Shown here: piece by piece, positions 8,184-39,426 of the stretch
Layout of the letters: every line of letters starts with the position of its first letter
How positions within the stretch are numbered: position 1 is the first letter of the stretch
DNA from: a virus
Strand: one strand, 5' to 3'
Virus record (IMG/VR): IMGVR_UViG_3300037465_000531
Length of the DNA: 49,363 bases
Made by a program: the position numbers and the translations under genes
The notes under the pieces: model-generated
Databases searched by the model: none
What the model saw: the letters and a program-made list of their open reading frames with translations, nothing else
What the model was told of the DNA's origin: nothing

Positions 8184-8852
8184 ATGCCCGGCACCACCTA
8201 CCTGCCCGGCTTCGGAGAGGTGAGGTACGACCTGACCCCGGTCGCCGATTACGGGGACGGCCAGACGTCTGCCGTCATCGGCCTGATGGCGAAGTACGCC
8301 GCCGAAGACAGCGAATCGACGGAAGTGCGTCAGGCGGTTGCCGCTGCACAGCGCCTGTATTCGGGCCTGACGCCGGAAGAGCAGGTCTACCGCTTCGCCC
8401 GCAGCCGCATCCGCTTCATCAACGACGAGGCGCTCAGCCAACCGTTCCAGCGCTGGTATCAGGACTACATCGTCGAAACCCTCATCCGGCCCCGCGACCT
8501 GCTCACCCTGCCCGTGCCCGTGGCGCAGGGCGACTGCGACGACTTCTCCATGCTCGTCGCCTCCATGCTGCTGGCGCAGGGCATCAAGGCCAGCTTCGTC
8601 ACCGTGGCCGCCGACGACCGCGACCCGAACCAGTTCAGCCATGTCTATGTCGCGAGCTACCGCGACGGCAAAAGGTTTCCCATCGATGCCAGCCACGGCC
8701 CCTTCGCCGGATGGGAGGTGCAGGGAGTCTACCGCCGGACGGAGTGGCCCGTCCGCAAGGCAGTCACTCTGGATCTGGACATCGACAGGATGCGGGTTCC
8801 CCTGATCGCGCTTGGCATCATCGGAGCCGTGGTCCTGTCATCGAGGAGATAA
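8184..8852 (+). CDS. Transglutaminase-like (papain-fold) protein with C-terminal membrane anchor
   Basis: Cys-His-Asp in family order: AQGDCDDFSMLVASML ... FSHVYVASY ... FPIDASH. C-terminus VPLIALGIIGAVVLSSRR. No SD; TACAAT ends 9 nt before the ATG. Confidence 0.6.
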   Translation: MPGTTYLPGFGEVRYDLTPVADYGDGQTSAVIGLMAKYAAEDSESTEVRQAVAAAQRLYSGLTPEEQVYRFARSRIRFINDEALSQPFQRWYQDYIVETLIRPRDLLTLPVPVAQGDCDDFSMLVASMLLAQGIKASFVTVAADDRDPNQFSHVYVASYRDGKRFPIDASHGPFAGWEVQGVYRRTEWPVRKAVTLDLDIDRMRVPLIALGIIGAVVLSSRR

Positions 8853-8858
8853 AGACTC

Positions 8859-9173
8859 ATGATGTACGCCGCGCAGCCGTGCTGCCAAGGATTAGCGGGA
8901 AGCTGGACCGACTGGTTCCAGTCCATCACCCAAGGGTGGAGCCAGACCGGCCAGCAGATCCTGCTCAATCAGAACCAGCCGCTGGTCATGGAGACCGGAG
9001 CTGGGGGAACGAAGGTCTACCAGACGGGGCCCGGCACCCCGGGTGCCGTGCTGCCAACACAACCATCCACGCCGGAGCGCGTCGTGCAGAGCAGCTTCTC
9101 GGGGCTATCGCTCCTGATTCTCGGCGGCGTAGCTCTGATTCTGCTGCTCAGAACACAAGGAGAAGGAGACTGA
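8859..9173 (+). CDS. Tail-anchored membrane protein
   Basis: No signal peptide. C-terminus LSLLILGGVALILLLRTQGEGD. Confidence 0.7.
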   Translation: MMYAAQPCCQGLAGSWTDWFQSITQGWSQTGQQILLNQNQPLVMETGAGGTKVYQTGPGTPGAVLPTQPSTPERVVQSSFSGLSLLILGGVALILLLRTQGEGD

Positions 9174-9177
9174 AACC

Positions 9178-9552
9178 ATGCCACTGCGAGTAAAGAACAT
9201 CGCTGCCGGATACTACGATTCCACGGGCTTCCACCCGATCCGGGCGTCTCAGGACTACGACCCGGGGCGCATCGGAGAAGCGGAGAAGTACAAAACCGCG
9301 AAGGGAAAGAAAGGCGCGAAGGGAAAGGCCAAGCGTGCGGCGGAGGTAGCCCGCACCAGCCGCGCGGCGCGGGCGACCCTGAAGCGGGCCTCCGGGCGCA
9401 GGAAGCGGGGAGAGGCGGCGCTCGAAGCCGCCAAGGCGGCGAAGAAGGCGGCCAAGCGGAAGAAGAATCCGATTCCCACCAACCGCTACGTCACGGCCAA
9501 GATCAAGCGTACGCGCAGCGGCGATCTGAAAGTCATCCTTCCCTTGAGGTAG
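9178..9552 (+). CDS. Highly basic Lys/Arg/Ala-rich protein (nucleic-acid-binding-like)
   Basis: KTAKGKKGAKGKAKRAAEVARTSRAARATLKRASGRRKRGEAALEAAKAAKKAAKRKKNP. Confidence 0.7.
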   Translation: MPLRVKNIAAGYYDSTGFHPIRASQDYDPGRIGEAEKYKTAKGKKGAKGKAKRAAEVARTSRAARATLKRASGRRKRGEAALEAAKAAKKAAKRKKNPIPTNRYVTAKIKRTRSGDLKVILPLR

Positions 9553-9555
9553 CTC

Positions 9556-10290
9556 ATGGCGCTTCGGCATCCGGTGCTCGGCGAATACGTCCCGTCAGTA
9601 GAAGACGTCGTCCTGCCGGACTACTCCGGCGGCGACTACTCGACGTGGCAGTCCGGCACCGCTGCGGCTTCTGGTGTCCTTGCCTCCGGCGTGGCGTCCG
9701 GCGCTCCGCTCGACGTCACGGCTGTCAATGCTGCGGGCGCAGCCCTAACCACGGCTGCGCCCACTTTTATGTCGGCAACCACCGCAGCAATCGCCATCCC
9801 GGTCATCGGCGCGGCGGTCGCCGGGGTCACCTTCTGGCTGATGCGGAACCGGTTGAACAACATCCGCAAGGAGAAGGCCACCCAGATCGTCAACGACGCC
9901 GAAGCCAAGATGAAGGAGAATCTGCAAGGCTATCTCAGCGGCCCTCGCACGATCTCCAGCCAGCGTCAGGCGCTGGCCAACTTCGACGCGCTGTGGGAGC
10001 ACATCGTGCAGGGTTGCACCGCCGTGGGCGGCGACCCGGGCCGCCGGTGCATCGAGGAGCGGCAGCGGGGAGGCAGCGCCCCGTGGTGCCCGACCGGCAC
10101 CGGCTGCGATTATTTCACGCTCTACCGCGACCCCATCGCCAACGACACGCCGCGCCCCGACCCGGTGCAGGCGACCATCGATCCTCTGACCGGCGAGATG
10201 GTTTCGTTCACCGGCGGCGGGCTGCTGCTGCCGTTGCTGCTGGCCGGTGCCGGGGTCCTGCTTCTGGTGTCGCGGAAGGAGGAAGAGTAG
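9556..10290 (+). CDS. Membrane protein with internal TM and C-terminal anchor
   Basis: AIAIPVIGAAVAGVTFWLM internal. C-terminus GGGLLLPLLLAGAGVLLLVSRKEEE. Confidence 0.75.
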   Translation: MALRHPVLGEYVPSVEDVVLPDYSGGDYSTWQSGTAAASGVLASGVASGAPLDVTAVNAAGAALTTAAPTFMSATTAAIAIPVIGAAVAGVTFWLMRNRLNNIRKEKATQIVNDAEAKMKENLQGYLSGPRTISSQRQALANFDALWEHIVQGCTAVGGDPGRRCIEERQRGGSAPWCPTGTGCDYFTLYRDPIANDTPRPDPVQATIDPLTGEMVSFTGGGLLLPLLLAGAGVLLLVSRKEEE

Positions 10291-10292
10291 CC

Positions 10293-10580
10293 ATGCCCAT
10301 GGTTCGCTTGGGATCCGCCGATTGCCAGTGCTTCGCGCCGCCATGCCCGTGCGATATGGAGGTGGTCTACAACGAGTCCGATTGCCCGGTCGGGACGCGT
10401 GCGGAGAGAATCTGGAGCGAGACGGCCCCGGGCACCACGGCGACAACCGTCATGCAGTACCGCTGCATGCCAACGTCTCCTGTCGGCAGCTCTGGCATCC
10501 ACCCGTCGTGGATGCTGATCGGTGCAGCTGCCGTTGCAGTGCTGCTTCTGTTCGGCGGCGGCGAAAAGGAGGACAACTGA
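10293..10580 (+). CDS. Cys-rich tail-anchored membrane protein (95 aa)
   Basis: ADCQCFAPPCPCDMEVVYNESDCP. C-terminus WMLIGAAAVAVLLLFGGGEKEDN. Confidence 0.7.
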   Translation: MPMVRLGSADCQCFAPPCPCDMEVVYNESDCPVGTRAERIWSETAPGTTATTVMQYRCMPTSPVGSSGIHPSWMLIGAAAVAVLLLFGGGEKEDN

Positions 10581-11797
10581 TGCAACTTCCGGTTCAGGGA
10601 AAGTTCGAGGAGCGGCCCGGCTGGGCGCTGCGCCCGGCGTGGGGCCAGCAGTACGGGCGCAGCCAGAGCGGCGGAGGCAAGCCCGTGTGGGGCCAGCAGT
10701 ACGGGCGCAGGGAAGCCGCCGTGGCGCTGCGGCCCGACAGCCCGTGGGCGCGGCAGAACGAGCGGTCCACATGGGGCAGGCAGCGGATGCCGGAGACGCG
10801 GGCGTTCCTGCGTGGACTGGGCGGCTACATCCCAGCCGCTCCGTTCTCCTACAACCCGCTGGAGGACATGAACCTCAAGGCGCAGTGGACGAACCAGTAC
10901 TACGCAAAGTCCGTGGAGTACGCGGACGGTGTGATCGCCGCGCTGCGAAGCATGGGCTTCGACGTTCAGGTGCTCGGCGTCGCCTGCGACCCCGCAGCGG
11001 GATGCCTCGGGATGATGCTCTATTCGGCCATCATCAACAAAGACGGCAAGACCATGGACACCAGCATCGGCAACCCGGTGCGGTACGACTCCCCGCAGCA
11101 GGAGGCGTCGGACATCGCCTACGTCTTCGGGATTTACGCAGTCCCGTCGCAGAGTTTCTCATCAGGGATCAACAACGACGCGCTCGTGCAGGCCGCCACA
11201 GTCCCGTCGTCGACTCCCACCTACGAGCAGTGGCTTCAGACGGCGACGCAAGCGCCTTCCGCGACCACGACGACGGCGACCGCAACCCAGACTACGACTG
11301 CGGCTGCGTCCTACCGCAAGGACGTTCAACTCCTCGCCCCCGACGGCTACCGCACCGGCGGCAGGTTCACCATGAAGATCTGGGGCAGCCCGGGCCAGAC
11401 CGTGGAGATCGAGGCGTGGCAGAACGGGCAGAGCCACGGCAGAAGCGCGTTCGGCACTACGGACGCCAGCGGCTACTACGAGATCTCCGGCTCGTGGCTG
11501 CCGGAGCACGCCGGGCGCTGGCAGGAGAACGTCTATGTCGGTGGCGAGGTCGTCGGCAGGCTGGACTTCGAGCTTGCCAACCCGGCGCAGACGGAACAGC
11601 CGGGCAACGTCACCGTCACGCCGGAGCTGCCTGAGGCCAACCAGCCGCCGCAGCCGGGCAGCGGGACGCCGGGCACCGGCGGCGGAACGATGACGCCGGG
11701 AGTGGTGCCGCCACCGCCGAGCGGAGGCTTCCCTTGGCTGCTGCTTGTCGGCGGCGGTCTGGCGCTGTTTCTCTTGGGAGGGAGCAAGGGCAAATAG
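10580..11797 (+). CDS. Large tail-anchored protein with WGQQYGR repeat, Thr/Ala-rich linker, beta-rich domain and Pro-rich stalk
   Basis: TGATG junction. TTTTATATQTTTAAAS linker. PPQPGSGTPGTGGGTMTPGVVPPPPSGG stalk. C-terminus FPWLLLVGGGLALFLLGGSKGK. Confidence 0.75.
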   Translation: MQLPVQGKFEERPGWALRPAWGQQYGRSQSGGGKPVWGQQYGRREAAVALRPDSPWARQNERSTWGRQRMPETRAFLRGLGGYIPAAPFSYNPLEDMNLKAQWTNQYYAKSVEYADGVIAALRSMGFDVQVLGVACDPAAGCLGMMLYSAIINKDGKTMDTSIGNPVRYDSPQQEASDIAYVFGIYAVPSQSFSSGINNDALVQAATVPSSTPTYEQWLQTATQAPSATTTTATATQTTTAAASYRKDVQLLAPDGYRTGGRFTMKIWGSPGQTVEIEAWQNGQSHGRSAFGTTDASGYYEISGSWLPEHAGRWQENVYVGGEVVGRLDFELANPAQTEQPGNVTVTPELPEANQPPQPGSGTPGTGGGTMTPGVVPPPPSGGFPWLLLVGGGLALFLLGGSKGK

Positions 11798-11798
11798 C

Positions 11799-12263
11799 AT
11801 GTCACCCGGAACCATTGTCTCGGCGCACAACGTGCTCTCCACCGTGCCGGTGAGCGAGCGCTACCTGTCGACATGCTACATGCCGACAAGCGGAGTGCTG
11901 CCGTCTCAGGTGACGTTCCGCATTTTCGTCGGCGGGATGAAGGTTTACGACGGACCGGGGAGCCCGGCGACTCCGACCTGCACCCGGCTTCCGTTCCCGC
12001 AGCAACTGGAAAACGGCGGAGAAGTCCGGGTGCAGGCCCTGCGCGACGGCGTCGTTTTGGCCGAGGACGTATACCATCATCAGGACATCGGGGCTCTGGA
12101 GCGCACGCTGCAGACGGTCGAGGGCACCGCTTCCTCGTTCGACTCACAGAAACTGTTCTTCCTCGTGCTGGTGGCTGCGGCTGTTTGGTTTTTCCTTCTT
12201 CGAGGCGGCGACAAGAAGGACGAAGACAATTTCGACTTCCTGCGGAGGATCAAGGTCAGATGA
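11799..12263 (+). CDS. Tail-anchored membrane protein
   Basis: C-terminal KLFFLVLVAAAVWFFLLRGGDKKDEDNFDFLRRIKVR. Confidence 0.7.
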   Translation: MSPGTIVSAHNVLSTVPVSERYLSTCYMPTSGVLPSQVTFRIFVGGMKVYDGPGSPATPTCTRLPFPQQLENGGEVRVQALRDGVVLAEDVYHHQDIGALERTLQTVEGTASSFDSQKLFFLVLVAAAVWFFLLRGGDKKDEDNFDFLRRIKVR

Positions 12264-12733
12264 ACACCGGATGGATCCTGATTGGCGGAGCGGTGCTGCT
12301 GTTGCTGTTGAACCGGCGACCGTCCCCTGCGACGGCGTCCGCGCCACGGATGCCCGAGACCGGCACCCCGGCTCCCGCGTCCGGGACCGGACAGCCCGCA
12401 GCCGACGCCGCTGGTGCCATGCCTGAGAGCGTGGGCGTCGCGCCGCCGGACGAGGTACTGGAGCAGGCGGCGATTGACCCGGCGAAGGCCTCGCTTGCGG
12501 GGGAGTGGAGGGTCAGCTGGCATGGGTGGAACTACTACCGGGCTCAGGCGGCCATCAAAGCCGGTTTGTGCGCCCCGCCGTGCTCGGAGTACGCGCCGGT
12601 GTTGGGAGAGCGCGTGGGACTGACCGACAATCAGGGCATCACCGCGAGCGAGTACCACGGATACCTCTCCCAGATCGGCATGAGCGGGGTGGCATGGCGG
12701 CGCGTGGCCGCCTACAGGAGGCCGTGGCAATGA
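12260..12733 (+). CDS. N-terminally anchored membrane protein
   Basis: ATGA overlap. MNTGWILIGGAVLLLLLNRRPSP followed by a Pro/Ala-rich linker. Confidence 0.7.
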   Translation: MNTGWILIGGAVLLLLLNRRPSPATASAPRMPETGTPAPASGTGQPAADAAGAMPESVGVAPPDEVLEQAAIDPAKASLAGEWRVSWHGWNYYRAQAAIKAGLCAPPCSEYAPVLGERVGLTDNQGITASEYHGYLSQIGMSGVAWRRVAAYRRPWQ

Positions 12734-13092
12734 TGGTGCGGAGTTCGCTTGGAACGGTTTACGACGACCCGGATCTGTGGATCGGAACGGTGTACGGCGA
12801 CAGCCCCGGATACGACGTGGCCGATTACATTCCTGCGGAGAATGTTCCTGCGTACTCTGTTACTGTCACAGACAGGGCAACGGAAGTGCCTCTCGTCTAC
12901 GCAGACACGTCCTCTTACGTCCTGCCCGGCGCGCAACAACAGACGCCCCATTCTGTCTGGAGCACAGCAGTTGGCGGGCAGATGACGGACGTCGCAAAGC
13001 AGGGACAGAGCCGGAGCCAGAGCGGCTTCGGCATCCCGCTACCGCTGGTGGCGGCGATTGCACTGGGATTGTTCCTCGGGCTGAGGAACTAG
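12730..13092 (+). CDS. Tail-anchored membrane protein
   Basis: ATGA overlap. C-terminus FGIPLPLVAAIALGLFLGLRN. Confidence 0.7.
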   Translation: MMVRSSLGTVYDDPDLWIGTVYGDSPGYDVADYIPAENVPAYSVTVTDRATEVPLVYADTSSYVLPGAQQQTPHSVWSTAVGGQMTDVAKQGQSRSQSGFGIPLPLVAAIALGLFLGLRN

Positions 13093-13104
13093 AGGGTTTC
13101 AGGC

Positions 13105-13284
13105 ATGATGTGCCAACTGCAGACGAACATGCCGGGAGCGGAGGGATGGAATCCGCTGGCGAGTCCTCCGAAGGAGGCTGCCGCCGCGCCGGAGACGAGC
13201 CCGCTGCTGGCGCTCGCTGTGGCCGCCGTCCTGATCCTGATCTTGTTCAGCGGAGGTGAAGCCGATGATGCTGGCTCCGATTAG
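13105..13284 (+). CDS. Small tail-anchored membrane protein (59 aa, below ORF-track cutoff)
   Basis: MMCQLQTNMPGAEGWNPLASPPKEAAAAPETSPLLALAVAAVLILILFSGGEADDAGSD. Same TM-GG-acidic tail as neighbours. Confidence 0.55.
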   Translation: MMCQLQTNMPGAEGWNPLASPPKEAAAAPETSPLLALAVAAVLILILFSGGEADDAGSD

Positions 13285-13558
13285 ACTTGGCGAAACGACG
13301 GATCCCTGCGGATCCGACTCGACCATGTGGGTGGTCATGAAGAGCACGGAGAACGGGAAGTGCTTCAACGTCTGCGTGGCGGACCCGACACAGATGTTCG
13401 AGGTCAGTTGCCCGGAGGCTGGCATCGAGACCGGAGGCATCAAGCCGAAGACTCCGAACCAGAGTCCGATGTCCGGTCAGACGATCATCCAAGGCGTGCC
13501 CAACTGGGTCGTCATCGGCGGAGCTGCTGTGCTGGGAGTGCTGCTGGCCAACAGGTGA
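13265..13558 (+). CDS. Cys-containing tail-anchored membrane protein
   Basis: GGAGG 8 nt before ATG 13265 (ORF track starts at GTG 13256). C-terminus VPNWVVIGGAAVLGVLLANR. Confidence 0.7.
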   Translation: MMLAPIRLGETTDPCGSDSTMWVVMKSTENGKCFNVCVADPTQMFEVSCPEAGIETGGIKPKTPNQSPMSGQTIIQGVPNWVVIGGAAVLGVLLANR

Positions 13559-13560
13559 TC

Positions 13561-13902
13561 ATGATGGAGAACCGCACCGGACGTCTGGATCTGTTGCTGC
13601 TCGGCATCGTCGAGCGGATCGCCAGCCGGGACCCTGTCTACGCGGCGGTGTACCAGACGTTCGAGCCGGAGATTCGAGCCGCGCTCGGCAATCTGGACTC
13701 CCCGCGCCTGCGCCGGGCGGTCAAGGCGCTGGCTTCCGGCGGCAGGGAGCAGGCTCGAGTAACGGGGAAGAGGAAAGAGGCCGAGCGCAAGCCGAAGACG
13801 GCTGCGCCCCGCAGGAAGAAGGCTGCGTTCAAAGCGCAGGTGCGAATCGCCAAGCCCAGCACGGAGCCGGTCGAGGTTGTGGAGGCAGAATGGGTCTCGT
13901 AG
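13561..13902 (+). CDS. Hypothetical protein with basic C-terminal half
   Basis: MMENRTGRLDLLLLGIVERIAS...KRKEAERKPKTAAPRRKKAAFKAQVRIAK. Confidence 0.65.
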   Translation: MMENRTGRLDLLLLGIVERIASRDPVYAAVYQTFEPEIRAALGNLDSPRLRRAVKALASGGREQARVTGKRKEAERKPKTAAPRRKKAAFKAQVRIAKPSTEPVEVVEAEWVS

Positions 13903-14375
13903 CTAAAGTCAGGATGGGAGCGTACCCGGAGGATCCGTACTACGATCCGAACCGGCCGTCGTGGCTGCCTTACTGGATCGACACTCCAACGGAATCCTAC
14001 CGGAAGTACAAGTACTATCTTTACGAGCTTCCAGCCACTGCGGACAAGCCGTACCCGGATCCGAATCCGCCTCCGGCTCCGTCGAGCCCGTCCAGCTTGG
14101 ATCTGGAGCATCAGCTGAGGACCGGGGACGTCGGGTCGTTCACCCCTGCCGACCAACTGAATCAGGATCGGTCTGCGTGGAACCAGTGGCGGCAGACCGC
14201 GATCCCCGAGACTCCGCTGGAAGCGCTGCGGAGGCAGGAAGAGGAAGAGAAAAAGCGGTCCGAGGAGGGCGGCCTGCCTCTCTGGGCGTGGCTGCTGATC
14301 ATCGGCGGCGGAGCTCTGGCGCTGGTCGTGGCGCTGAAGCCCAACATGCCTAGCGTAAGTTTCGGTTCGAGGTGA
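13890..14375 (+). CDS. Pro/Tyr-rich tail-anchored membrane protein
   Basis: C-terminal GGLPLWAWLLIIGGGALALVVALKPNMPSVSFGSR. Confidence 0.7.
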   Translation: MGLVAKVRMGAYPEDPYYDPNRPSWLPYWIDTPTESYRKYKYYLYELPATADKPYPDPNPPPAPSSPSSLDLEHQLRTGDVGSFTPADQLNQDRSAWNQWRQTAIPETPLEALRRQEEEEKKRSEEGGLPLWAWLLIIGGGALALVVALKPNMPSVSFGSR

Positions 14376-14379
14376 AACT

Positions 14380-14904
14380 ATGCCGTTCATCAACGTACAT
14401 CCCGCGCCGGGCCTAGGGGAGCTGACTCCGGGCTGGTTCATCGTGCCCAACAATCCGTTCCAGCTGCGACAGCCCGTGGCACGCACCACAGGCGTCGGCG
14501 AACTGGTCGCGGCGCACTGGACGCTGCCGCAGAATCCGCTGGCCAATCAACTGGCCACCATCGGCCTGCCCCCGGGGCAGAGTTCCCAGAAGGCGGTCAT
14601 ACAGGGGCTCGGTGCAATCGATCTCGGTTCGGAGTTCTCCTCGTGGGCGAATCCGGGCGAGTGGACGTTCAGCCAGTGGGCTCTGGTGATCGGCGTTGGC
14701 GCTCTGTTCCTTCTCACCATGCGGAAGGACCGCGCCGGTTACAAGGCCGCCAAGCTGCAAGCGAAAGCGGACTACTACCGCGCGTTGCAGGATGCGAGGT
14801 CGAAGCACAAGACTCTGGGCGGAAGAGCCGTCGACTACGCGAGGGAGCGGCGGGCGGCGGCTGCCGCTGCGGCTGCGAGGGCGGCTGTGGTTGCGGAGGG
14901 CTGA
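14380..14904 (+). CDS. Membrane protein with single TM followed by a basic helical tail
   Basis: WTFSQWALVIGVGALFLLTMRKDRAGYKAAKLQAKADYYRAL... Confidence 0.7.
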   Translation: MPFINVHPAPGLGELTPGWFIVPNNPFQLRQPVARTTGVGELVAAHWTLPQNPLANQLATIGLPPGQSSQKAVIQGLGAIDLGSEFSSWANPGEWTFSQWALVIGVGALFLLTMRKDRAGYKAAKLQAKADYYRALQDARSKHKTLGGRAVDYARERRAAAAAAAARAAVVAEG

Positions 14905-14905
14905 C

Positions 14906-15487
14906 ATGCCGGGCTACTACTTGATCGACGACCGGACCAAGACGATCACTCCCGTGACCGAGGAGGACTACGAGGAGCGCCGCCGGATCGAAAGCTCGAC
15001 CCGGCGCATCGTGCCCGCCTACAGCAGCGAGGTGCAGCGTTACCTGCGGATGGGCTACCGGCTGAAGAACCCCTACATGGGCTTTCGCAAGCTGGTGTCC
15101 GCGCTCAGGAAACGGGGCGCGGAAGACGCGCGGGCGCTGGCGGCGTGGATCGGGCGGCGGAAGTACGGCAAGGAGCGGTTCCAGAAGATGGCCGCCGATG
15201 GCCGGAGACGGAATCCCGGGTCGCCTGCCGAGGCCTACGAATACATGGTCACGCTGCATGACCGCTCCGGCCATCTTGTGGAGGCCGGGCACGCGGCTTC
15301 TCTGGCCGACGCGGCCAAGTACGCGTCCCGATCCGACGTCATCCGTGACGGTTACTTCGCCTTCTGGCGCGGGGGCAGGCAGATCGCTGGAGGCAAGTTC
15401 CGTTCCGGCATGAGCGAGGACCGCTGGGCCGAGGCGTTCGCCCGTGGCGGCATCCAGTGGAGACCGAAGCGGAGAAAGGAGGCTTGA
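14906..15487 (+). CDS. Hypothetical basic protein
   Basis: In-frame ATG 2 nt after the upstream stop. Contains RLKNP and GRRRNPGSP motifs. Confidence 0.7.
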   Translation: MPGYYLIDDRTKTITPVTEEDYEERRRIESSTRRIVPAYSSEVQRYLRMGYRLKNPYMGFRKLVSALRKRGAEDARALAAWIGRRKYGKERFQKMAADGRRRNPGSPAEAYEYMVTLHDRSGHLVEAGHAASLADAAKYASRSDVIRDGYFAFWRGGRQIAGGKFRSGMSEDRWAEAFARGGIQWRPKRRKEA

Positions 15488-16710
15488 TGGCGATCAACCT
15501 GAAGACTGCTGGCGGAGACTCGGCGGTCTGGACTGCTCGCGGGGGCAGCCGCCCGTTGGACAGCGGGGACGTCGCTCATCTGGATTTCGAGGCGGCGGTC
15601 GAGCTGCTGCGGATGCTGGGGTTCCGTGTGCGGAATCCGAGGAAGAAGGGCGGCGGGGAAGAAGGAGGAGCCCAGAAATGGGATGACATCTCCAGCGCTA
15701 AGGTGGAGCAGCTGATCAACTCGTCGGACCTTCAGGAGCGGTTCAAAGCGATCCGGGGAGCGCTTGTGGCCGCCGGGATGGCGAAGTCGAACAGGGAAGT
15801 ATCTTCCATCGTGCTGTGGTCGCCGCGCCGTCTGGCCAACGTGAGCATCAACAGCGGCAACTCGAAAACCGGGCCGACGATGTGCACCAACGTGTCTCAG
15901 GCAAGCTGCCCGGATGGGAGGAACAACGCGAGCGGATTCCGGTGCCCGCTGTACGACTCCGGCTGCTACGCCGAGTGGGGCACGCAATCCTTCGCTCACA
16001 CCAAGCACCTGAACGCGGCTTCCGGCATCAGCAGCAAGGCGACCGGCAAGGACCCGTCTAAGAGCCGCTACACGCCGGAGGACGTGGCCGAGGATGAAGC
16101 CGCCGTGCTTCGCCTCGCCCACCCGTTCTGGCAGCTGCTGCGGCTGAACAACGGCGTGCGCTTGCACGTCGTCGGCGACTGCGTCACTCCGTCCGCTGCG
16201 CGGACCGTGGGCGCTGCGGCCAAGCTCTTCGCCGAGGGACGGTTGACCGGCTCCGGTGTAAGGGAAGGCGGCGCGGCGGACGCGAAAAACGTCTGGAACT
16301 ACACGCATGGCTGGCGCGACGTGCCGCGCTCGGCGTGGCCGTCCGACATCAGCGTGCTGGCAAGCTGCGACACGGTGGACGATCTGGAAGAAGCGCACCG
16401 GCGCGGCTACGGGTCGTGCGTCGTCGTCCCGGAGTACCTGCAGAAGAAAGTCGGCGAGCAGGTTGTCCACTTGGGCAAGGCGATGATGACGGACAACGGG
16501 TTCCGGCTCATTCCCTGCCCGCACGAGGTGGCGGCGAAGAACGAGAAGAACGAGCGCGTCTGGTGCCTTGAGTGCAAGCTGTGCATGAGGGACGACTTCC
16601 TCCACCGCACCAAGAGCGTCATCGCCTTTGCCGCGCACGGAACCAAAAAGGCGCAGCAGACGGCGGCGCAGTTGATCAGCATCGAGGACATGAAAGGAGC
16701 GGCTGACTGA
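15487..16710 (+). CDS. Cys-rich hypothetical protein (407 aa)
   Basis: AAAGGAGG upstream, TGATG junction. NSGNSKTGPTMCTNVSQASCPDGRNNASGFRCPLYDSGCYAEWG and CPHEV...VWCLECKLC clusters suggest metal binding. I recall a similar Cys pattern in a phage family (GP88-like), unverified. Confidence 0.7.
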   Translation: MAINLKTAGGDSAVWTARGGSRPLDSGDVAHLDFEAAVELLRMLGFRVRNPRKKGGGEEGGAQKWDDISSAKVEQLINSSDLQERFKAIRGALVAAGMAKSNREVSSIVLWSPRRLANVSINSGNSKTGPTMCTNVSQASCPDGRNNASGFRCPLYDSGCYAEWGTQSFAHTKHLNAASGISSKATGKDPSKSRYTPEDVAEDEAAVLRLAHPFWQLLRLNNGVRLHVVGDCVTPSAARTVGAAAKLFAEGRLTGSGVREGGAADAKNVWNYTHGWRDVPRSAWPSDISVLASCDTVDDLEEAHRRGYGSCVVVPEYLQKKVGEQVVHLGKAMMTDNGFRLIPCPHEVAAKNEKNERVWCLECKLCMRDDFLHRTKSVIAFAAHGTKKAQQTAAQLISIEDMKGAAD

Positions 16711-18080
16711 TGGGCAAGCTGGAAAACTTTTACCGTTCCCTCGGCGTTCCCACTGTGAAGAACCCCTCCAGCAGCGAGGGCCGGGAGCTCGACCGCAAGG
16801 TGCGGGCGATCATGAACTATATCGACCGCCACGGCAAGGGTTACTTTGAATCCTTGTCGGACATCAACGCGCTGCTCGACCGCACCGCATCAGCCGCCGG
16901 TCTCAGCATGGTGGACTACGTCAACACCGCCGTTCCGTACGACCGGACGGTGAGCCTTCTGCTGGCGACGTCGGATCCCAACGTGTTCGTCCATGTGTCG
17001 ATCTACCGCATGCCGAGCGGGCGCTACGAGCTGGTGGCCTACCCCACCCGGGACTCGCTGCGGAAGCGCGGTCTGCAGGGCAAGAGAAGAAACCCTGCGG
17101 GCGACATGGAGGATGCTCTGGCCAACTACATCGCCCACAACGTCTACTGGAAGCTGCAGGAGGAGGCTGAACAGAGCGCGGGGATGAAGCCGGAGCACCG
17201 GGTGCCGATCCGCAGCGGGGTGGTGTTCGTGGCGAAGGTGGAGGCCTACGAGCCCGGACTCGGTCTGGCTCTTTCTGTCTGGACGGAGCGGGAAGAGGGC
17301 GTTCCGGAAAGCGAGGTACACCATCTGACGTGGAGGCAGTTCAGGACCCGGTTTGTCGATTCCTCCACTCTGGAGCCTCTGGTCGACGCACTGCACTATG
17401 CACTCCATCACGGGACTCTTAGCGGGTACCCCGGGTCCGGAGCGGAGGGGGAAGAGCCCGCACCTGTGCGGCAGAACCCTTCGATCCGTCTGGAGCGGAA
17501 CCCCGAGGGCGGGGGCGAGGAGCAGGAGCCCGTGGAGGAGTCCTACTCGGCTGGCGTGGAAGAGGTGCCGGAGCTGGAGGACAGCTACGAGGAAGCCGAG
17601 AAGGTATATGAAACCTTCCACGGCAGGGACAGCGACGAGGAGGTCGTCGTCGAGGAGGCGTTCGCGGTCAGGGACAATCTGGCCGCGCTCGGCATCCTGC
17701 AAGAGCTGTCTCTGACATCGCCCGCGAAGGTGAAGTTCAAGGTCGCCTTCGAGGACGACCAGCCGCTGTTGTGCTCCAGCGTCGATTCTCTGCAGCTCTA
17801 TATCATCGGCGGGGACCAGTCCATCGACGACGATACGCTGCTTGAGATCCTCGACGGGGACCAAGAGGCGGCCAACAAGGACAAGGTGCTGCTCGGCGTT
17901 CTGGACACGCTGGTGTACCAGACCGAGAAGGACTTCGACAATTTCGAAACCATCGACTACGAGCACGAGCTCGGAGAGGACGGCGGCTTCCAGCCCGCCG
18001 TCGTCTACGACCGGGTGAACAGACAGCTTGAGCTCGTCGGTGGGTCGTACAAGATCAAGCGGGAGGGAATCGTCAACTGA
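16710..18080 (+). CDS. Hypothetical protein (456 aa) with acidic central linker
   Basis: TGATG junction. KRRNPAG, VRQNPSIRLERNPEGGGEE motifs. C-terminal domain ...YETFHGRDSDEE...LYIIGGDQ...YEHELGEDGGFQPAVVYD...LVGGSYKIKREGIV. Confidence 0.75.
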   Translation: MGKLENFYRSLGVPTVKNPSSSEGRELDRKVRAIMNYIDRHGKGYFESLSDINALLDRTASAAGLSMVDYVNTAVPYDRTVSLLLATSDPNVFVHVSIYRMPSGRYELVAYPTRDSLRKRGLQGKRRNPAGDMEDALANYIAHNVYWKLQEEAEQSAGMKPEHRVPIRSGVVFVAKVEAYEPGLGLALSVWTEREEGVPESEVHHLTWRQFRTRFVDSSTLEPLVDALHYALHHGTLSGYPGSGAEGEEPAPVRQNPSIRLERNPEGGGEEQEPVEESYSAGVEEVPELEDSYEEAEKVYETFHGRDSDEEVVVEEAFAVRDNLAALGILQELSLTSPAKVKFKVAFEDDQPLLCSSVDSLQLYIIGGDQSIDDDTLLEILDGDQEAANKDKVLLGVLDTLVYQTEKDFDNFETIDYEHELGEDGGFQPAVVYDRVNRQLELVGGSYKIKREGIVN

Positions 18081-18138
18081 TGGTCGCCCTTCCCTTGATA
18101 TCCGCCATTGCGCGGAAACCACAGAAAGGAGAAACCGA

Positions 18139-18888
18139 ATGGCTGTGGTGAAAGTGGTGCGGCGAGTGGCGAATCCGCGCAGGAGAGCTCGCCGCAGGCT
18201 GAATCCGATCCGGCGGCGGAAAACGATCCGACGCCGCAATCCCGCGCTCGTGCTCACGCTCGGCGCAGTGAATCCCAAACGCAAAAGGAGAAAGAACCCC
18301 ATGGCTCGTATCAGTCGTCGCCGCCGGAATCCCCGGCGCAAGATGCTGTCCCTGTTCTCGGTGCCGGTGCGCCGCCGCCGGAATTCCCGTCGTCGCCGCC
18401 GGAACCCCGCTCTGGCTGTCTACCGCCGCCGCTACAGCCGCCGCCGCCGCAATCCGATGTTCGGCAGCGTGAAAGGCGCTGCTGTGCTCGGCGGCCTGAC
18501 CGGCGTCGCCGCCACCCGGCTGGTTTCCAAGATCATCCCGCCCGGCATCCTCGGCTTCGCGGGCCAGTTCGCCCCGCTGCTGAGCGACGGCATCAGCGCG
18601 ATGCTGGTGAGCTGGGCCGCCGAGAAGATGGGCGGCAATGGCGAAACGGCGCGGGACTTCAAGTCCGGCGTGCCCTTCGGCGCTCTGATGCTGGTCGGTT
18701 CGACGGCCATCAGCACCTTCGTTCCCGGTCTGCGGCAGTACGGCTTCGGCATCGGCGCTCTGGTGCCGGGCCAGTTCCCGATCCCGCAGAACCCGATCCG
18801 TCCCCTCGCTCTTCCGGCTCCCGCGCCGGACGCCAAGACCCGGGTCAACACCAGCGGTCTGAGCCGCGCGTTCGGCACCGCGTTCTAG
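18139..18888 (+). CDS. Protamine-like Arg-rich (RRNP)n repeat protein fused to a Gly-rich hydrophobic membrane domain
   Basis: AGAAAGGAGAAACCGA-ATG. About 8 R-rich blocks ending in NP in the first ~115 aa. After that: VLGGLTGVAATRLV, ILGFAGQFAPLL, GISAMLVSWAA, FGALMLVGSTAISTFVPGL. Confidence 0.8.
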   Translation: MAVVKVVRRVANPRRRARRRLNPIRRRKTIRRRNPALVLTLGAVNPKRKRRKNPMARISRRRRNPRRKMLSLFSVPVRRRRNSRRRRRNPALAVYRRRYSRRRRNPMFGSVKGAAVLGGLTGVAATRLVSKIIPPGILGFAGQFAPLLSDGISAMLVSWAAEKMGGNGETARDFKSGVPFGALMLVGSTAISTFVPGLRQYGFGIGALVPGQFPIPQNPIRPLALPAPAPDAKTRVNTSGLSRAFGTAF

Positions 18889-18894
18889 TTTTAC

Positions 18895-18920
18895 GGGGCG
18901 GAGGACGAACTCCCCGCCCC
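18895..18920 (+). terminator. GC-rich hairpin after gene 18139 (no U-tract)
   Basis: ggggcgg ... ccgcccc, 7-bp stem. A second hairpin cccggc-tca-gccggg follows, just before the AAGGAG of gene 18981. Confidence 0.3.
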
Positions 18921-18980
18921 AGTGCCAACACAAAGACCCAATGAAATCCCGGCTCAGCCGGGTGAAGGAGAACAACGACA

Positions 18981-19592
18981 ATGGCGAATGAACAGATCAT
19001 CCTCGACGCATTCCAGTCGCAGGTCTACGTCGAGAACCGGATGGACGTGCAGCACACCCCGCTGTACGACACCGTTTCTTGGAGCGCCGGTGATTCGGTG
19101 ACCGAGCTCACCGGGCAGTGGTTCACCAACGTGGGCCCGAGCTCCAGCAAGACGAAGGCCAAGACCAACATGACCCAGTCGCGGCGTCTGCCCGCGCCGG
19201 AGGCCTTCAGCGTGTTCGGCATCCGGGTCTACTGGAAGCCGAACGTCCTGCTGGCGGACCTCATCAGCGTGCTGGACAACTTCGCGCTCGAGTTCTACCT
19301 CGGGCAGAAGTCGTACAACCTCGGCCCGCTGTGGTACTACGCCGCCGGTGCTGGCATCGACGGCGTGGCTGCCACCACGGCCACCTCGACCACGATCACG
19401 TCGTGGCTCAACGGCGCTCCGCACCGCGAGTCGATGCACAAGCTGGCGCTGCCCATCGTCATCGAGAACCAGATGACGTTCTGGGCGCAGCTGGTCGGCA
19501 CCTCGACCACGCTGACCGCCAGTGGCAGCGGCGGCACCGGCCTGACCCTCACGGTCCTGCTCGACGGCTTCTACGCTCGCGGCGTGCAGTGA
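18981..19592 (+). CDS. Candidate abundant capsid protein, beta-rich (203 aa)
   Basis: The gene is insulated by ~90-nt and ~80-nt hairpin-containing spacers and has a strong AAGGAG. The sequence has alternating hydrophobic beta-like runs (FSVFGIRVYW, FALEFYLG, LALPIVIENQMTFWAQLVG, LTLTVLLDGFYARG). Confidence 0.55.
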   Translation: MANEQIILDAFQSQVYVENRMDVQHTPLYDTVSWSAGDSVTELTGQWFTNVGPSSSKTKAKTNMTQSRRLPAPEAFSVFGIRVYWKPNVLLADLISVLDNFALEFYLGQKSYNLGPLWYYAAGAGIDGVAATTATSTTITSWLNGAPHRESMHKLALPIVIENQMTFWAQLVGTSTTLTASGSGGTGLTLTVLLDGFYARGVQ

Positions 19593-19608
19593 TCGCTGCT
19601 CCCGATGG

Positions 19609-19643
19609 CATGGGAGGGGGGCTTCTCAAAGCCCTCCTCCATG
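19609..19643 (+). terminator. Imperfect GC-rich hairpin after gene 18981
   Basis: catgggaggggggctt-ctca-aagccctcctccatg. Confidence 0.35.
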
Positions 19644-19673
19644 CTGCAAACTTGAGGAGAGGAGAAAGAGTCC

Positions 19674-20102
19674 ATGCGATACAACCCCTACGCTCCACCG
19701 GCCATCCGGGGGCTCGGACAGACAGAGGACAAGGCCTACATCGACATCCCACGGTTCCACCGCATCGAGGTGTCGATGTCGGCGAGCGAATTCATCCGCG
19801 ATCGGGCGAGCGAGTTCAGCGACGAGGGGGACTTCATCCTCCGCGCCATCAGCGTGGCGTCGTTCACCGGCGCGTTCAGCGTGCAATTCACCGACGCCAA
19901 CGGCTACGCGATGTCGAACACGCTGATCAACCACTACGCCTTCCTCGGGGCGAGCAACAGCCCGGTGCCGTTCGTGATCTTCCCGGAAGTGGTGTTCCCC
20001 AAGAGCAGCAAGATCAGCTTGAACATCCTCAACCTGACGACGTCGGCCAACACCGTGATCTTCCTGTTGCACGGAGTGATGCGGGCGCAGGCGCTCAGGT
20101 AA
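19674..20102 (+). CDS. Small beta-rich protein, one copy of the recurrent ~130-aa unit (single-jelly-roll-like; penton candidate)
   Basis: DFILRAISV..FTDANGY..PFVIFPEVVFPKSSKISLNILNLT..VIFLLHGVMR parallels both halves of gene 20115. Confidence 0.5.
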   Translation: MRYNPYAPPAIRGLGQTEDKAYIDIPRFHRIEVSMSASEFIRDRASEFSDEGDFILRAISVASFTGAFSVQFTDANGYAMSNTLINHYAFLGASNSPVPFVIFPEVVFPKSSKISLNILNLTTSANTVIFLLHGVMRAQALR

Positions 20103-20114
20103 GGAGGGCGGGCG

Positions 20115-20939
20115 ATGGATTACTTCGACCTGCCGTTTTACTACGTCTACGACGCCTCGGGGCTGACCAACGGCCAGAGCTACGACGGGCTGGCGATTGC
20201 GGTTGACCGCGACGCGGAATTCCGGCTGCGGGCCGTGCTCGGCGTCAATCTGGTCTGCTCCGGCGGGATGTACTTCTACGACGGCGACGGGAAGCCCGCG
20301 ACGCCGCGCGGATTCATCCATCCGGGCGACCAGCCGCTGCTGGTGCAGCCGGAGATCGTCTATCCGCCAGCCGGTCAGATCCGGTTCTCTCTGTCGAACG
20401 TGCAGCGTGCGGCGCACAACTACACCGGCACGCAGAAGGCATATTACAGCCGCCTGTGCTTCTACGGCGTGAAGCGGTTCACCGGCGAACGCGCCCGGTC
20501 GATGCTCGATCAGCAGAAAGCCTCGGCGGCCTTCCGCCACTTCCCGTACCAGAATCGGAACGACCTGACCGTGAGCATCTACAGCCACGTCAGCCCGGGC
20601 TTCACGCAGGAGGAAGCGCCGCGCCAGTTCCGGGTCGAGGTGGACAACTACGGCTACGACTGGTTCGCTCTCGCGGGCGAGCCGGATCTGCTCAACAACA
20701 AGCTGCTGCTGATGCCCTACGACTCCAGTAGCACACGGCAGCTGGCGAGCGACTATGTGCCGTCGGCATTCCTCGCGTGGCGTCCGTACCGGCCATGGGC
20801 GTGCTTCCCGTCGGTTCCCCTGTTCTTCCCGGCCAACGGCATTCTGCGGCTGGACTGGATGAGCCGGTACACGGACGCCGACACGCTGCCTGCAACCGTG
20901 CCGATCACATTGATCGGGGCACGGAGGATCGGATGCTGA
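20115..20939 (+). CDS. Internally duplicated beta-rich protein (274 aa), two copies of the unit (double-jelly-roll-like capsid candidate)
   Basis: Half 1: AEFRLRAVLGV..FYDGDGK..LLVQPEIVYPPAGQIRFSLSNV..LCFYGVKR. Half 2: YDWFALAGE..MPYDSSS..PLFFPANGILRLDWMS..ITLIGARR. Confidence 0.5.
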   Translation: MDYFDLPFYYVYDASGLTNGQSYDGLAIAVDRDAEFRLRAVLGVNLVCSGGMYFYDGDGKPATPRGFIHPGDQPLLVQPEIVYPPAGQIRFSLSNVQRAAHNYTGTQKAYYSRLCFYGVKRFTGERARSMLDQQKASAAFRHFPYQNRNDLTVSIYSHVSPGFTQEEAPRQFRVEVDNYGYDWFALAGEPDLLNNKLLLMPYDSSSTRQLASDYVPSAFLAWRPYRPWACFPSVPLFFPANGILRLDWMSRYTDADTLPATVPITLIGARRIGC

Positions 20940-20952
20940 GGATGGAGGGCGT

Positions 20953-21480
20953 ATGCTGAGCGCAATTGCGGATGGATTCACGCTGCACCCGGGCATGATC
21001 GAGATTCCGGGCAGGTACGAGCCCATGGCCATCGCGCAGCTGGAGCTGCTGCGGCGATCGAAGACCTATCGTCCGTATTGGGTGAGAGTGCCGGAAGGAA
21101 GCCAGACGGTGGGGGCCTTCGGCAGCTTCCAGTATCAGGTGCATCTGAAACCGGGCAGCTGGCTCTACGGGCTGCAGCTGACCGTGCTTGACGTTCTGGA
21201 CCAGCCGGTGCTGTCGATGAACAGCGCCGTGCTGAGCATCCAGATCACGGAGACCTACAGCGGGGCGCAGTTGTTCAGCGAGCACAGCCGCACGCAGCCG
21301 CTGTGCAATCAGTGCTGGTTCGGCGACACATCCCGGCTGCAGTTTTTCCCGCTCGCAGAGCCGAAAGTGATCATCGATCCCGGAGATCTGGACATCGATG
21401 TCTGCAACCTGACCGATCTGGCCCGCAAGTGGGAGCTGATTCTGTTCACGGCGGAACCGTACGAGCTGGTGGAGGCCTGA
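20953..21480 (+). CDS. Beta-rich protein distantly related to the same unit
   Basis: LYGLQLTVLDV..SIQITETYSGAQLFSE..FFPLAEPKVIIDPGDLDIDVCNLT..ELILFTAEP. Confidence 0.45.
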   Translation: MLSAIADGFTLHPGMIEIPGRYEPMAIAQLELLRRSKTYRPYWVRVPEGSQTVGAFGSFQYQVHLKPGSWLYGLQLTVLDVLDQPVLSMNSAVLSIQITETYSGAQLFSEHSRTQPLCNQCWFGDTSRLQFFPLAEPKVIIDPGDLDIDVCNLTDLARKWELILFTAEPYELVEA

Positions 21481-21481
21481 C

Positions 21482-21841
21482 ATGGACGCGTATTTGACGA
21501 GAGCGGACATCCCCCTGCTGAAGCGGTCGGAGAAAAGCGCGGAGAAGCTCGTCGCAGCAGGCCTGCCGGTGCTGCAGCTTCGGAACATGCTTGCCAACCT
21601 GACGGCTTCTTTGGGCGTCTACAACGTCTACCGCACCTCCAGAAACCGGCTGGAGATCGTAGACGCCAAGGCCGAGTCCATCCGACACGCCAAGCTGGCG
21701 AAGAACGACTACACGGACCTTGCCAAGCGGATCGAGTCAGGCATCCCGGATCCGAAGGCCCGGAGGAAGATCCGCAAGGTTCTGGACGATGTCCACTTCG
21801 GAGTCATCCACCGCATGAGGGTGAGAAAGGACGGGCTCTGA
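21482..21841 (+). CDS. Hypothetical helical basic protein
   Basis: ORF track; tight spacing (starts 2 nt after the upstream stop, ends in a TGATG junction). Confidence 0.65.
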   Translation: MDAYLTRADIPLLKRSEKSAEKLVAAGLPVLQLRNMLANLTASLGVYNVYRTSRNRLEIVDAKAESIRHAKLAKNDYTDLAKRIESGIPDPKARRKIRKVLDDVHFGVIHRMRVRKDGL

Positions 21842-22374
21842 TGCTGCAAGGACAGTATGTTCCTCGAGCTACGGACGCGGACCGGGAGTTGTGGACAATC
21901 ACGTTGGAAACGCCCCGTTGGAAGAGCGACCGTCTGTTCGGGTCCAGCAAGTACAAGAGCGACCAGCCGCCGTGGCTGGTGATGCCGCCGAATGCGGTTC
22001 CGTTCCAGAAGTTCAGCTCCATCGCGCTGCCTGCGGCCAACGGTCAGGACAATACGGTGGTGCAGTTCACCGTGCCGCAGGGCTTCGATGGCGTGATCAG
22101 CTCTCTGGTGCAGCAGTACACGGGCACAGGGTTCGTCGAGGGCAGCGGCGATTTGAAGTGGCGCATCCGCATCGGCGACCGCTGGGCCGAGGACATGGGC
22201 AACATGATCACCCAGCTTGGCAGCCTCCAGTCGCCGTACCAGATCTACCGCAGCGGGGTGCGGCTGCGGGAGTCGGACACGGTCACCTACATCGTCAACC
22301 ATGCGACGGGGAGCGGTCTGACCGGCGGGCGCATCGTCTGCGGCTGTTTCGGGTGGTACTATCCCACCGCGTGA
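21841..22374 (+). CDS. Virion-associated candidate; paralogue of the C-terminal domain of gene 24842
   Basis: FTVPQGFDGV...YTGTGFVEGSGDLKWRIRIGD...RIVCGCFGWYYP vs FEVPEGYYGY...YTGTGYVEGSTDIYWRIKISD...RIIGGIRGWLYEP. Confidence 0.6.
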   Translation: MLQGQYVPRATDADRELWTITLETPRWKSDRLFGSSKYKSDQPPWLVMPPNAVPFQKFSSIALPAANGQDNTVVQFTVPQGFDGVISSLVQQYTGTGFVEGSGDLKWRIRIGDRWAEDMGNMITQLGSLQSPYQIYRSGVRLRESDTVTYIVNHATGSGLTGGRIVCGCFGWYYPTA

Positions 22375-22382
22375 GGTGACCG

Positions 22383-22787: not shown

Positions 22788-22794
22788 GGACGAG

Positions 22795-24840: not shown

Positions 24841-24841
24841 C

Positions 24842-26046: not shown

Positions 26047-26047
26047 C

Positions 26048-26272: not shown

Positions 26273-26396
26273 GGCGCTGTCAGGCATTCTTACCCCGGAG
26301 CAGATCGGGACTCTGGCGGCAGGCGCGGCGGTCGTGAACGCGTTCCTGCCGTCGGTGCTGGGGAAGAAAACCGGGTCGGAGCAGGGCAAAAGTTGA
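26181..26396 (+). CDS. Small membrane protein (holin-like)
   Basis: AAAGGAGAGG upstream. KILIIVFKILQILGIGAGTAAL and LAAGAAVVNAFLPSVLG. Confidence 0.6.
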   Translation: MGKVKKILIIVFKILQILGIGAGTAALTNPEALSGILTPEQIGTLAAGAAVVNAFLPSVLGKKTGSEQGKS

Positions 26397-39423: not shown

Positions 39424-39426
39424 GCA

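Follow-up and report, generated by a model that had tools for sequence, protein, structure and literature searches.

The window considered here is the whole 49,363-nucleotide stretch of IMG/VR virus record IMGVR_UViG_3300037465_000531, and the subject of this report is a gene on its + strand, at positions 18,139 to 18,888, which encodes a protein of 249 residues. An Arg-rich arm punctuated by Asn-Pro (NP) dipeptides is followed in this protein by a Gly/Ala-rich hydrophobic domain, and a first-pass annotation had suggested that the two halves tether and neutralise DNA on a lipid bilayer. We tentatively regard the protein as a membrane-anchored, protamine-like genome binder of a phage that probably lacks a tail and contains lipid. 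The features of the gene and its immediate flanks are as follows.

18126..18131, + strand: Shine-Dalgarno (SD) sequence AAGGAG, read from the sequence, 7 nt 5' of the main ATG
18139..18888, + strand: the gene, 249 amino acids (aa) plus stop (open reading frame and translation, codon-position substitutions, homologues)
18139..18462, + strand: Arg/NP-rich basic arm, residues 1-108, predicted disordered (composition, shuffle test, AlphaFold2 predicted local distance difference test score (pLDDT) of about 50 without secondary structure)
18139..18300, + strand: segment present only in the predicted long form, residues 1-54, with motifs MAxVKxVRRxANP and NPALVVTLGAVNP conserved in alignments
18285..18303, + strand: internal SD sequence AAGGAG (18285-18290) and in-frame ATG (18301-18303, Met55), the predicted start of a 195-aa short form
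18475..18720, + strand: predicted three-helix, Gly/Ala/Ser-rich hydrophobic domain, residues 113-194 (AlphaFold2, pLDDT about 80)
18745..18801, + strand: tail motif FGIGALVPGQFPIPQNPIR, consensus G[LM]G[ED]LxP[GA]xFx[VI]P[QE]NP[LI], in which P216 and N218 are invariant
18856..18885, + strand: conserved C-terminus GLSRAFGTAF, in which G240 and R243 are nearly invariant and the last residue is mostly F or Y
18892..18962, + strand: two GC-rich stem-loops between the gene and the next one, p203, with no T-run after either (fold -38.4 kcal/mol, z = -2.7)

The open reading frame (ORF) runs on the + strand from an ATG at 18139 to a TAG at 18886-18888. Owing to the high GC content, other reading frames at the locus are also open. 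Substitutions at codon positions 1, 2 and 3 number 20, 8 and 57 relative to the homologue at locus L004, and 48, 31 and 105 relative to that at locus L013. Since these substitutions pile up at the third codon position, the annotated frame is the coding frame, and this bias, together with hundreds of homologues, rules out a chance or artefactual ORF in GC-rich DNA. No split gene or frameshift was seen between the N-terminal segment and the remainder of the protein. The first-pass annotation had taken the gene to be real and to have a strong ribosome-binding site, as the third-position bias and the well-placed AAGGAG bear out.

No match to the protein was found in Pfam, PHROGs or NCBIfam, none to its family profile among PDB sequences at E ≤ 10, and none by tblastn against 50,697 phage genomes, in agreement with the earlier remark that no described phage protein of such architecture was known. 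In the literature on protamine-like or Arg-rich phage membrane proteins and on this virus group, only eukaryotic-virus analogues were relevant, and we know of no phage precedent for a genome-condensing protein fused to a membrane-type domain. A word-indexed search retrieved 310 homologues at E ≤ 0.01, and an exhaustive profile search, with only the C-terminal 149 residues as query, yielded 587 clusters (50% identity), of which 298 reach E ≤ 1e-10. No family member has been named or assigned a Pfam domain. Their sources are metagenomes, IMG/VR viral contigs of 47-58 kb and contigs that reach 84 kb; in GTDB, a relative was present on only two short contigs of metagenome-assembled genomes, and no isolate genome was DNA-similar to the window or encoded either this protein or p203. 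The protein is the founder of a large, new and unannotated family in an unclassified virus lineage, in which the viral contigs carrying the family span about 47-84 kb. The family offers a marker gene for such viruses, a natural pair of predicted short and long isoforms and an Asn-Pro code that is strictly kept.

Residues 1-116 hold 40 Arg and 7 Lys and neither Asp nor Glu, and the net charge of the arm is about +47. The highest net charge in any 30 residues is 16, as compared with 10 in the terminal protein of PRD1 and at most 7 in the virion proteins of PRD1 and PM2. NP dipeptides stand at residues 12, 22, 34, 45, 53, 64, 89 and 105, in exactly the eight contexts read in the first-pass annotation (RRVANP, RRRLNP, IRRRNP, AVNP, KRRKNP, RRRRNP, RRRRRNP and RRRRNP). 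Eight of the nine Asn in residues 1-108 precede Pro and eight of the nine Pro follow Asn; 200,000 shuffles of this segment never reached eight NP, the maximum being five. Clusters of four or more Arg, short neutral spacers, an almost complete lack of acidic residues and predicted disorder, by which protamine-like sequences are recognised, are all found in the arm and throughout the family. In full-length members the arm measures 110-200 residues; the median is 36% for Arg plus Lys and six for NP (minimum four), and acidic residues number about one at most.

In a 75-sequence alignment (33% mean identity), N12, P35, G42, N45, P46, N105, P106 and N218 are invariant, and Asn never gives way to Ser, Thr or Asp at five positions. 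Among the arms of 112 sequences, 725 of 1082 Pro (67%) follow Asn and 725 of 1108 Asn precede Pro, most commonly in the context RR-NP-RR. The SPKK and SPRR(R) turns of sperm histones and of the hepatitis B virus core C-terminal domain consist of a turn residue and Pro flanked by basic residues in a disordered tail. The RR-NP-RR unit is a similar basic-flanked turn, but with an invariant Asn in place of the interchangeable Ser/Thr; the [ST]-P-basic-basic unit is itself absent from the protein, where the conserved sites never have Ser or Thr. Because Asn takes that place, the arm would lack phospho-regulation.

Within the arm, the internal AAGGAG lies 10 nt 5' of the ATG at 18301, and all 12 of the 12 loci compared have, at the homologous site, an SD-like motif 4-12 nt 5' of an in-frame ATG or GTG. 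The motif is kept although the encoded residues differ (in L009 it is spelled by Gly-Gly codons), and in the window it takes two of the five AGR Arg codons of a gene that otherwise uses CGN for Arg (41 codons). The alignment column of Met55 holds M in 45 and V in 27 of the 75 sequences, and the next column holds Ala in 66. Because this internal signal and start are conserved in every one of the 12 loci and align as M or V followed by Ala, two in-frame products of 249 and 195 residues appear likely from the sequence. The long and short forms would each be translated from a ribosome-binding site of its own, the two being equal in strength, and PRD1 offers a parallel in its nested in-frame P7/P14.

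About 12-20% of the database homologues are roughly 200 aa or shorter and start at internal Met codons. Gene callers picked the Met55-equivalent start in L013, L015 and L017 despite an open upstream frame, and in L024 a later in-frame ATG, again with an open frame upstream. As the full arm lies upstream, in frame and without a stop, in all four of these short loci that were inspected, their short homologues are best explained as start choices of the gene callers. The first-pass annotation had named a dispensable or non-conserved Arg-rich half as the finding that would count against it. A dispensable arm is ruled out, all four inspected short homologues being start miscalls, and the architecture is kept in hundreds of relatives.

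With the 75-sequence alignment, AlphaFold2 predicts residues 1-112 and the tail (195-249) to be disordered, and places helices at 113-132, 137-164 and 169-194. The invariant NP at 105-106 and a second NP at 218-219, of which P219 is nearly invariant, bracket this helical domain. The three or four Gly/Ala-rich hydrophobic segments of the first-pass annotation are thus right as to composition (20 Gly and 17 Ala in the C-terminal 133 residues), but they are modelled as three helices, not four, and are only moderately hydrophobic. The best 19-residue Kyte-Doolittle mean is 1.5-1.6, and the Eisenberg mean hydrophobicity of the helices is 0.43-0.50 with a moment near 0.1. Apparent insertion energies, on the scale of Hessa et al. 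2005, are +3.8 to +8.7 kcal/mol for the hydrophobic part versus -2 to +2 kcal/mol for the clear transmembrane (TM) segments of the neighbouring proteins; the best 19-mer scores +3.8 kcal/mol and the family median is +4.2, where most neighbouring TM segments score -1.9 to +2.3. The helices are rich in small-xxx-small patterns and contain the conserved polar residues K127, Q185, S188 and N192.

Because their hydrophobicity is uniformly moderate and their amphipathicity low, these helices resemble those of multi-helix or oligomeric membrane proteins. A role as a membrane domain is plausible, more likely as an oligomer. A Foldseek search of the model against the PDB gave no significant match, and the weak matches (E 0.2-1) were nearly all to PsaL, a 3-TM membrane subunit. 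A jelly-roll shell domain fused to the arm is absent, the C-terminal domain being all-helical in the AlphaFold2 model. Downstream of the gene, a terminator scan of the gap at 18892-18962 found none on the + strand, its sole match being the second stem-loop on the - strand, and the two stem-loops could be an element of mRNA processing or stability rather than a terminator.

The genes around the 249-residue protein include the following.

8184..14904, + strand: cassette of about 11 small proteins in a row, each bearing a single strongly hydrophobic segment (translations, insertion-energy scan)
9178..9552, + strand: p124, a Lys/Ala-rich basic protein (net +27) with a GFHPIRASxDY module (translation, charge)
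14380..14904, + strand: p174, with two PGxFxVPQNP motifs, one TM segment and a basic Ala-rich C-tail (motif and insertion-energy scans)
16710..18080, + strand: p456, an acidic protein (net -37) with a conserved RRNPxGDxED, directly upstream of the gene under study and syntenic (synteny, charge)
18981..19592, + strand: p203, a predicted beta-sandwich with 377 homologues, the most conserved of its block (AlphaFold2, pLDDT 77)
19674..20939, + strand: p142 (19674-20102) and p274 (20115-20939), a single domain and its tandem-duplicated paralogue (hhalign)

In the upstream cassette the hydrophobic segments are mostly C-terminal, and internal-membrane phages have a membrane-protein cassette of similar arrangement. 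Its first ORF (8184-8852) has a match to transglutaminase-like cysteine peptidases, below the Pfam cut-off. The tail motif of the 249-residue protein is found twice at the N-terminus of p174 and of its orthologues; no further gene family in the scanned loci has it. The two proteins are alike in layout, in that the membrane segment or segments separate a basic region from the motif, and p174 is likely a partner or analogue. In three homologues (P0047, P0052 and that of L008, 9605-10717), the GFHPIRASxDY module of p124 is inserted in the arm, which at the sequence level is a gene-fusion link between two basic proteins. A further basic protein, p193, has a net charge of +33 in its extended ORF (14696-15487).

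The acidic p456 contains one 60-residue window at net -19. Its homologues in distant relatives range from 0 to -24, with other genes intervening before the homologue of the 249-residue protein; a dedicated charge chaperone is a weakened candidate for p456, since the distant homologues are only mildly acidic and not always adjacent. Among the intervening genes of distant relatives are one to three tandem paralogues of about 95-118 aa (L015 9286-9630, L017 8546-9629, L022 8829-9951 and L023 9629-9967), most of which start with MAVTVTYxYPVAG and none of which is present in the window. Upstream of p456 in most loci lies a syntenic Cys-rich DUF7227 protein (15487-16710 in the window; phrog_2554, with a weak GP88 match in a relative). 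The [RK]NP motif is conserved in orthologues of p193 (LKNPYMGF, RRNP), p456 (RRNPxGDxED) and p124 (KKNPIP). In addition, p407 carries VRNP, and the motif NP[YF]A[PT]P opens p142 (NPYAPP in the window, 19674-19700); in the rest of the proteome, the frequency of NP is that expected by chance.

Downstream, the block formed by the 249-residue protein, p203, p142 and p274 is kept in every locus examined (contigs of 47 to 84 kb). The model of p203 has weak Foldseek matches (E 0.005-0.5) to capsid proteins of SPV1, SH1, HHIV-2, nodavirus, bromovirus and circovirus, and also to C1q/TNF domains, and a search of PDB by sequence returned only noise. By hhalign, p142 aligns twice on p274, with residues 1-123 (98.8%, E 1e-16) and with residues 135-273 (97.2%, E 3e-11). 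This pairing of a single domain with a tandem duplicate resembles the penton and double-barrel arrangement of PRD1- and PM2-type viruses. PM2 P2 is 269 aa long, and p274 shows no sequence similarity to PM2 P2 or to any other PDB chain, and its profile retrieved just 15 further close relatives, none annotated. In charge, the three candidate shell proteins (p203, p142 and p274) are close to neutral. The capsid candidate that the first-pass annotation had placed next to the gene is a beta-sandwich as modelled, with only weak jelly-roll matches, and p274 is the better double-barrel candidate.

The ends of the window share a 127-bp exact terminal overlap, and the protein is also encoded on a contig of 49,266 bp and on one of 98,579 bp, which corresponds to two genome lengths. 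The window thus represents an entire genome of about 49.2 kb that is circular or circularly permuted. Scans of its ORFs of at least 100 aa, those of 8184-25759 and the others, with Pfam, PHROGs and NCBIfam, limited by the sensitivity of profile hidden Markov models, gave no terminase, portal, HK97-type capsid or tail protein. In the same databases no FtsK/HerA-type packaging ATPase was found in the complete circular genome, its sole P-loop proteins being helicases, an AAA_24 (Sak4-like) protein and a MoxR-type AAA+ protein, all in the replication half. An internal protein of a tailed phage was rejected, as these scans showed no terminase, portal or capsid gene of that kind anywhere in the genome.

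The 249-residue protein is most readily interpreted, although still tentatively, as a structural protein that acts as a membrane-anchored, protamine-like genome binder or tether in an uncultivated lineage of probably tail-less, lipid-containing dsDNA (double-stranded DNA) phages. The disordered arm, with its Arg clusters split by Asn-Pro turns, would neutralise and condense the circular 49-kb genome. The three helices, rich in small residues, would be embedded in the viral membrane or form oligomers there. The tail, by its motif GLGELxPGxFxVPQNP, may dock onto the protein shell as in p174, and would lie on the opposite face of the membrane because the number of helices is odd. Other basic proteins of the module, such as p124 and p193, may contribute to neutralisation of the DNA. 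For the 98,000 phosphate charges of the genome, about 500-1000 copies would be needed for 25-50% neutralisation, a number that would fit a vesicle of about 30 nm radius. What was observed is the composition, the conservation, the predicted helices, the motif in common with p174, the internal start signal and the gene neighbourhood; we infer DNA binding, membrane insertion, orientation, presence in the virion and copy number.

Such a role is supported by the family-wide conservation of the basic arm, by the membrane-protein cassette upstream and by the duplicated-domain p274 and the beta-sandwich p203 downstream. As the complete circular genome yielded neither a terminase, a portal or an HK97-type capsid protein nor an FtsK/HerA-type ATPase, condensation driven by charge is attractive. 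A circular genome with no packaging motor recalls PM2, in which the DNA is thought to be enclosed while membrane and capsid form (PMC6356626). The gene neighbourhood also suits the lipid-bilayer setting proposed in the first-pass annotation, whereas the helices themselves are markedly less hydrophobic than the TM segments of the neighbours. Several points weigh against a membrane-anchored genome binder. Stable TM insertion is uncertain because of insertion energies of +5 to +9 kcal/mol and of the conserved K127, Q185 and N192. The virions are probably tail-less and lipid-containing, a nature which is itself deduced; p203 and p274 lack any sequence match to solved capsid proteins, and the Foldseek matches of p203 all lie above E 0.001. 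The [RK]NP motif recurs in neighbours, the acidic p456 among them, that are not obviously DNA-binding, and the invariant Asn-Pro is not explained by a charge role alone. Finally, in PRD1-type vesicle formation the cytoplasmic face of the membrane ends toward the capsid and not toward the DNA (PMC6356626), and since the positive-inside rule puts the +47 arm on the cytoplasmic side, the arm would in an assembly of this type face the capsid.

Small membrane proteins encoded beside capsid genes are known from PRD1 (P16, P11, P18, P32, P34 and P7/P14) and from PM2 (P3-P10), and in this respect the 249-residue protein is like them, but none of them bears a basic domain to match its arm, and tblastn showed no similarity. 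PM2 P3 and P6 have been proposed to register capsomers on the membrane (PMC6356626). Among nucleic-acid binders, the N-terminal arms of capsid proteins from small icosahedral single-stranded RNA and DNA viruses and protein J of the Microviridae are likewise disordered, highly positive and genome-neutralising. Those arms sit on a jelly-roll or are a free peptide, whereas the present arm is borne by a three-helix hydrophobic domain and is encoded by a 49-kb dsDNA genome. Adenovirus belongs to the double-barrel capsid lineage. Its proteins VII and pre-Mu (pX), together with baculovirus P6.9 and ascovirus P64, the last being a large two-domain cationic protein (PMC6163548), are also Arg-rich and protamine-like and condense dsDNA in an icosahedral particle. 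Unlike the 249-residue protein, they come from viruses of eukaryotic hosts and have neither a membrane domain nor NP, and no sequence similarity was seen (no Pfam match).

The use of proteins to condense dsDNA is usually ascribed to viruses of eukaryotes and to some viruses of archaea. Sulfolobus polyhedral virus 1 (SPV1, Portogloboviridae), for instance, has a circular dsDNA nucleoprotein core within a lipid layer and a jelly-roll shell. Its capsid proteins are among the Foldseek matches of p203, although not significantly so (E 0.06-0.07); SPV1 is an archaeal virus with a genome of about 20 kb and is not known to have an Arg/NP membrane protein. In the dsDNA phages known so far, ATP-driven motors carry out genome packaging, and such motor-packaging phages have no protamine-like Arg arms (PMC7096446). 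The present family suggests that bacterial viruses have an assembly route yet to be explored and that a sizeable virus lineage awaits classification, because about 47 positive charges, a membrane-type domain and a docking motif are conserved together without recognisable packaging machinery.

A more far-reaching proposal, doubtful but the first to be considered after the genome-binding role alone, is that the DNA is not pumped into a preformed shell at all. The membrane-anchored protamine, with p124 and other basic proteins, would condense a circular genome of 47-84 kb on the nascent membrane, and capsid and membrane would close around it; the NP bonds may then be sites of maturation cleavage. 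If true, this would be an adenovirus- or PM2-like core strategy new to phages.

Rather unlikely, but compatible with the preferred genome-binding role, is an entry or pilot protein stored in the particle, the glycine-zipper-like helices of which would insert in the host envelope as a DNA conduit while the Arg arm escorts the DNA end. It would combine the roles of the membrane DNA-delivery proteins of PRD1 with those of phiX174 H and J. The marginal hydrophobicity, the small-xxx-small patterns and the polar residues K127, Q185, S188 and N192 suit an oligomeric pore better than a static anchor, and PRD1 provides a precedent in its DNA-delivery proteins P18, P32, P34 and P11, together with the nested in-frame pair P7/P14 (NC_001421 annotation). 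However, an arm of +47 in an estimated hundreds of copies fits bulk neutralisation better than a pilot limited to vertices, and the motif common to the tail and p174 suggests static docking.

The arm may alternatively point outward, as a cement between membrane and shell that binds an acidic capsid surface or p456, with the PQNP tail in the lumen. The positive-inside rule and the PRD1-type budding topology (PMC6356626) agree with this orientation, as do the strongly acidic charge of the syntenic p456 (net -37, with its window at -19) and the same layout of basic side and motif side in p174. We consider such a cement unlikely all the same, since the distant p456 homologues are far less acidic (0 to -24) and not adjacent, the shell candidates p203, p142 and p274 are near neutral, and at least 40 Arg per copy without acidic residues are typical of nucleic-acid binders.

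Alternatively, the protein may be a polyprotein precursor, cut at Asn-Pro bonds by Asn cyclisation or by a viral protease into short Arg-rich peptides that would condense DNA like adenovirus mu and a free hydrophobic 106-218 fragment. FlhB/YscU are documented to cleave themselves at Asn-Pro, and self-cleavage that depends on Asn is likewise on record for several viral coat proteins (PMC3207474). Conserved Asn-Pro of the scissile type is indeed found in the family (N12, N45-P46, N105-P106 and N218 are invariant), with Asn unreplaced at five positions in 75 sequences, 67% of arm Pro following Asn, NP bracketing the helices and [RK]NP conserved in several further proteins of the module. The ORF at 8184-8852 would provide a candidate membrane-anchored cysteine peptidase of the transglutaminase-like type, its match falling below the Pfam cut-off. 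Processing of this kind nevertheless seems improbable, as known Asn lyases need a folded catalytic setting (an NPTH loop; PMC3207474), the arm is predicted to be disordered and has no NPTH, and cutting at every NP would lose the membrane tether.

A non-structural, unpackaged role, as a membrane-bound organiser recruiting viral or host DNA or as a compactor of the host nucleoid, would suit a cytoplasm-facing DNA binder under the positive-inside rule but is highly improbable, the gene lying in an invariant block between membrane-protein and capsid-like genes and far from the replication module at 32-47 kb.

The remainder of the genome yielded a number of minor observations. Two tandem paralogues, p336 and p344 (22795-24840), have relatives that adjoin the tip-attachment protein of tailed phages of Brevundimonas, Caulobacter and Sphingomonas (in Brevundimonas phage Leszy, locus L019, at 5878-6888), within the tail-fibre modules of those phages. 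On account of these neighbours, p336 and p344 are probably receptor-binding proteins (putative spikes), and the sequence hints at an alphaproteobacterial host. Adjacent to them, p305 (24842-25759) is homologous in its C-terminal 180 residues to p177 (21841-22374; hhalign 100%, E 5e-55).

A candidate lysis cassette follows at 25768-27232, with a coiled-coil protein carrying a TM segment and, at 26181-27232, a holin-like protein of 71 aa with two TM segments and a protein of 205 aa with a C-terminal TM segment. The 249-residue protein lies inside the structural block, with these lysis-like genes elsewhere, and no indication of a holin or lysis function was found for it. As a 209-aa tyrosine integrase (29035-29664) follows the lysis cassette, the virus may be temperate. 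Scans of the window for tRNA genes and Rfam families were empty. The replication and recombination half (module at 32-47 kb) encodes an SNF2 helicase, a DEAD-box helicase, the AAA_24 protein, an ERCC4 nuclease, the MoxR ATPase, a DUF2201/VWA protein and a ParB-like helix-turn-helix protein, and the tyrosine integrase is counted with it. In the same half, a family-A DNA polymerase is split in two adjacent genes (37232-40836), the first of which fuses a UDG-like domain to the 3'-5' exonuclease.

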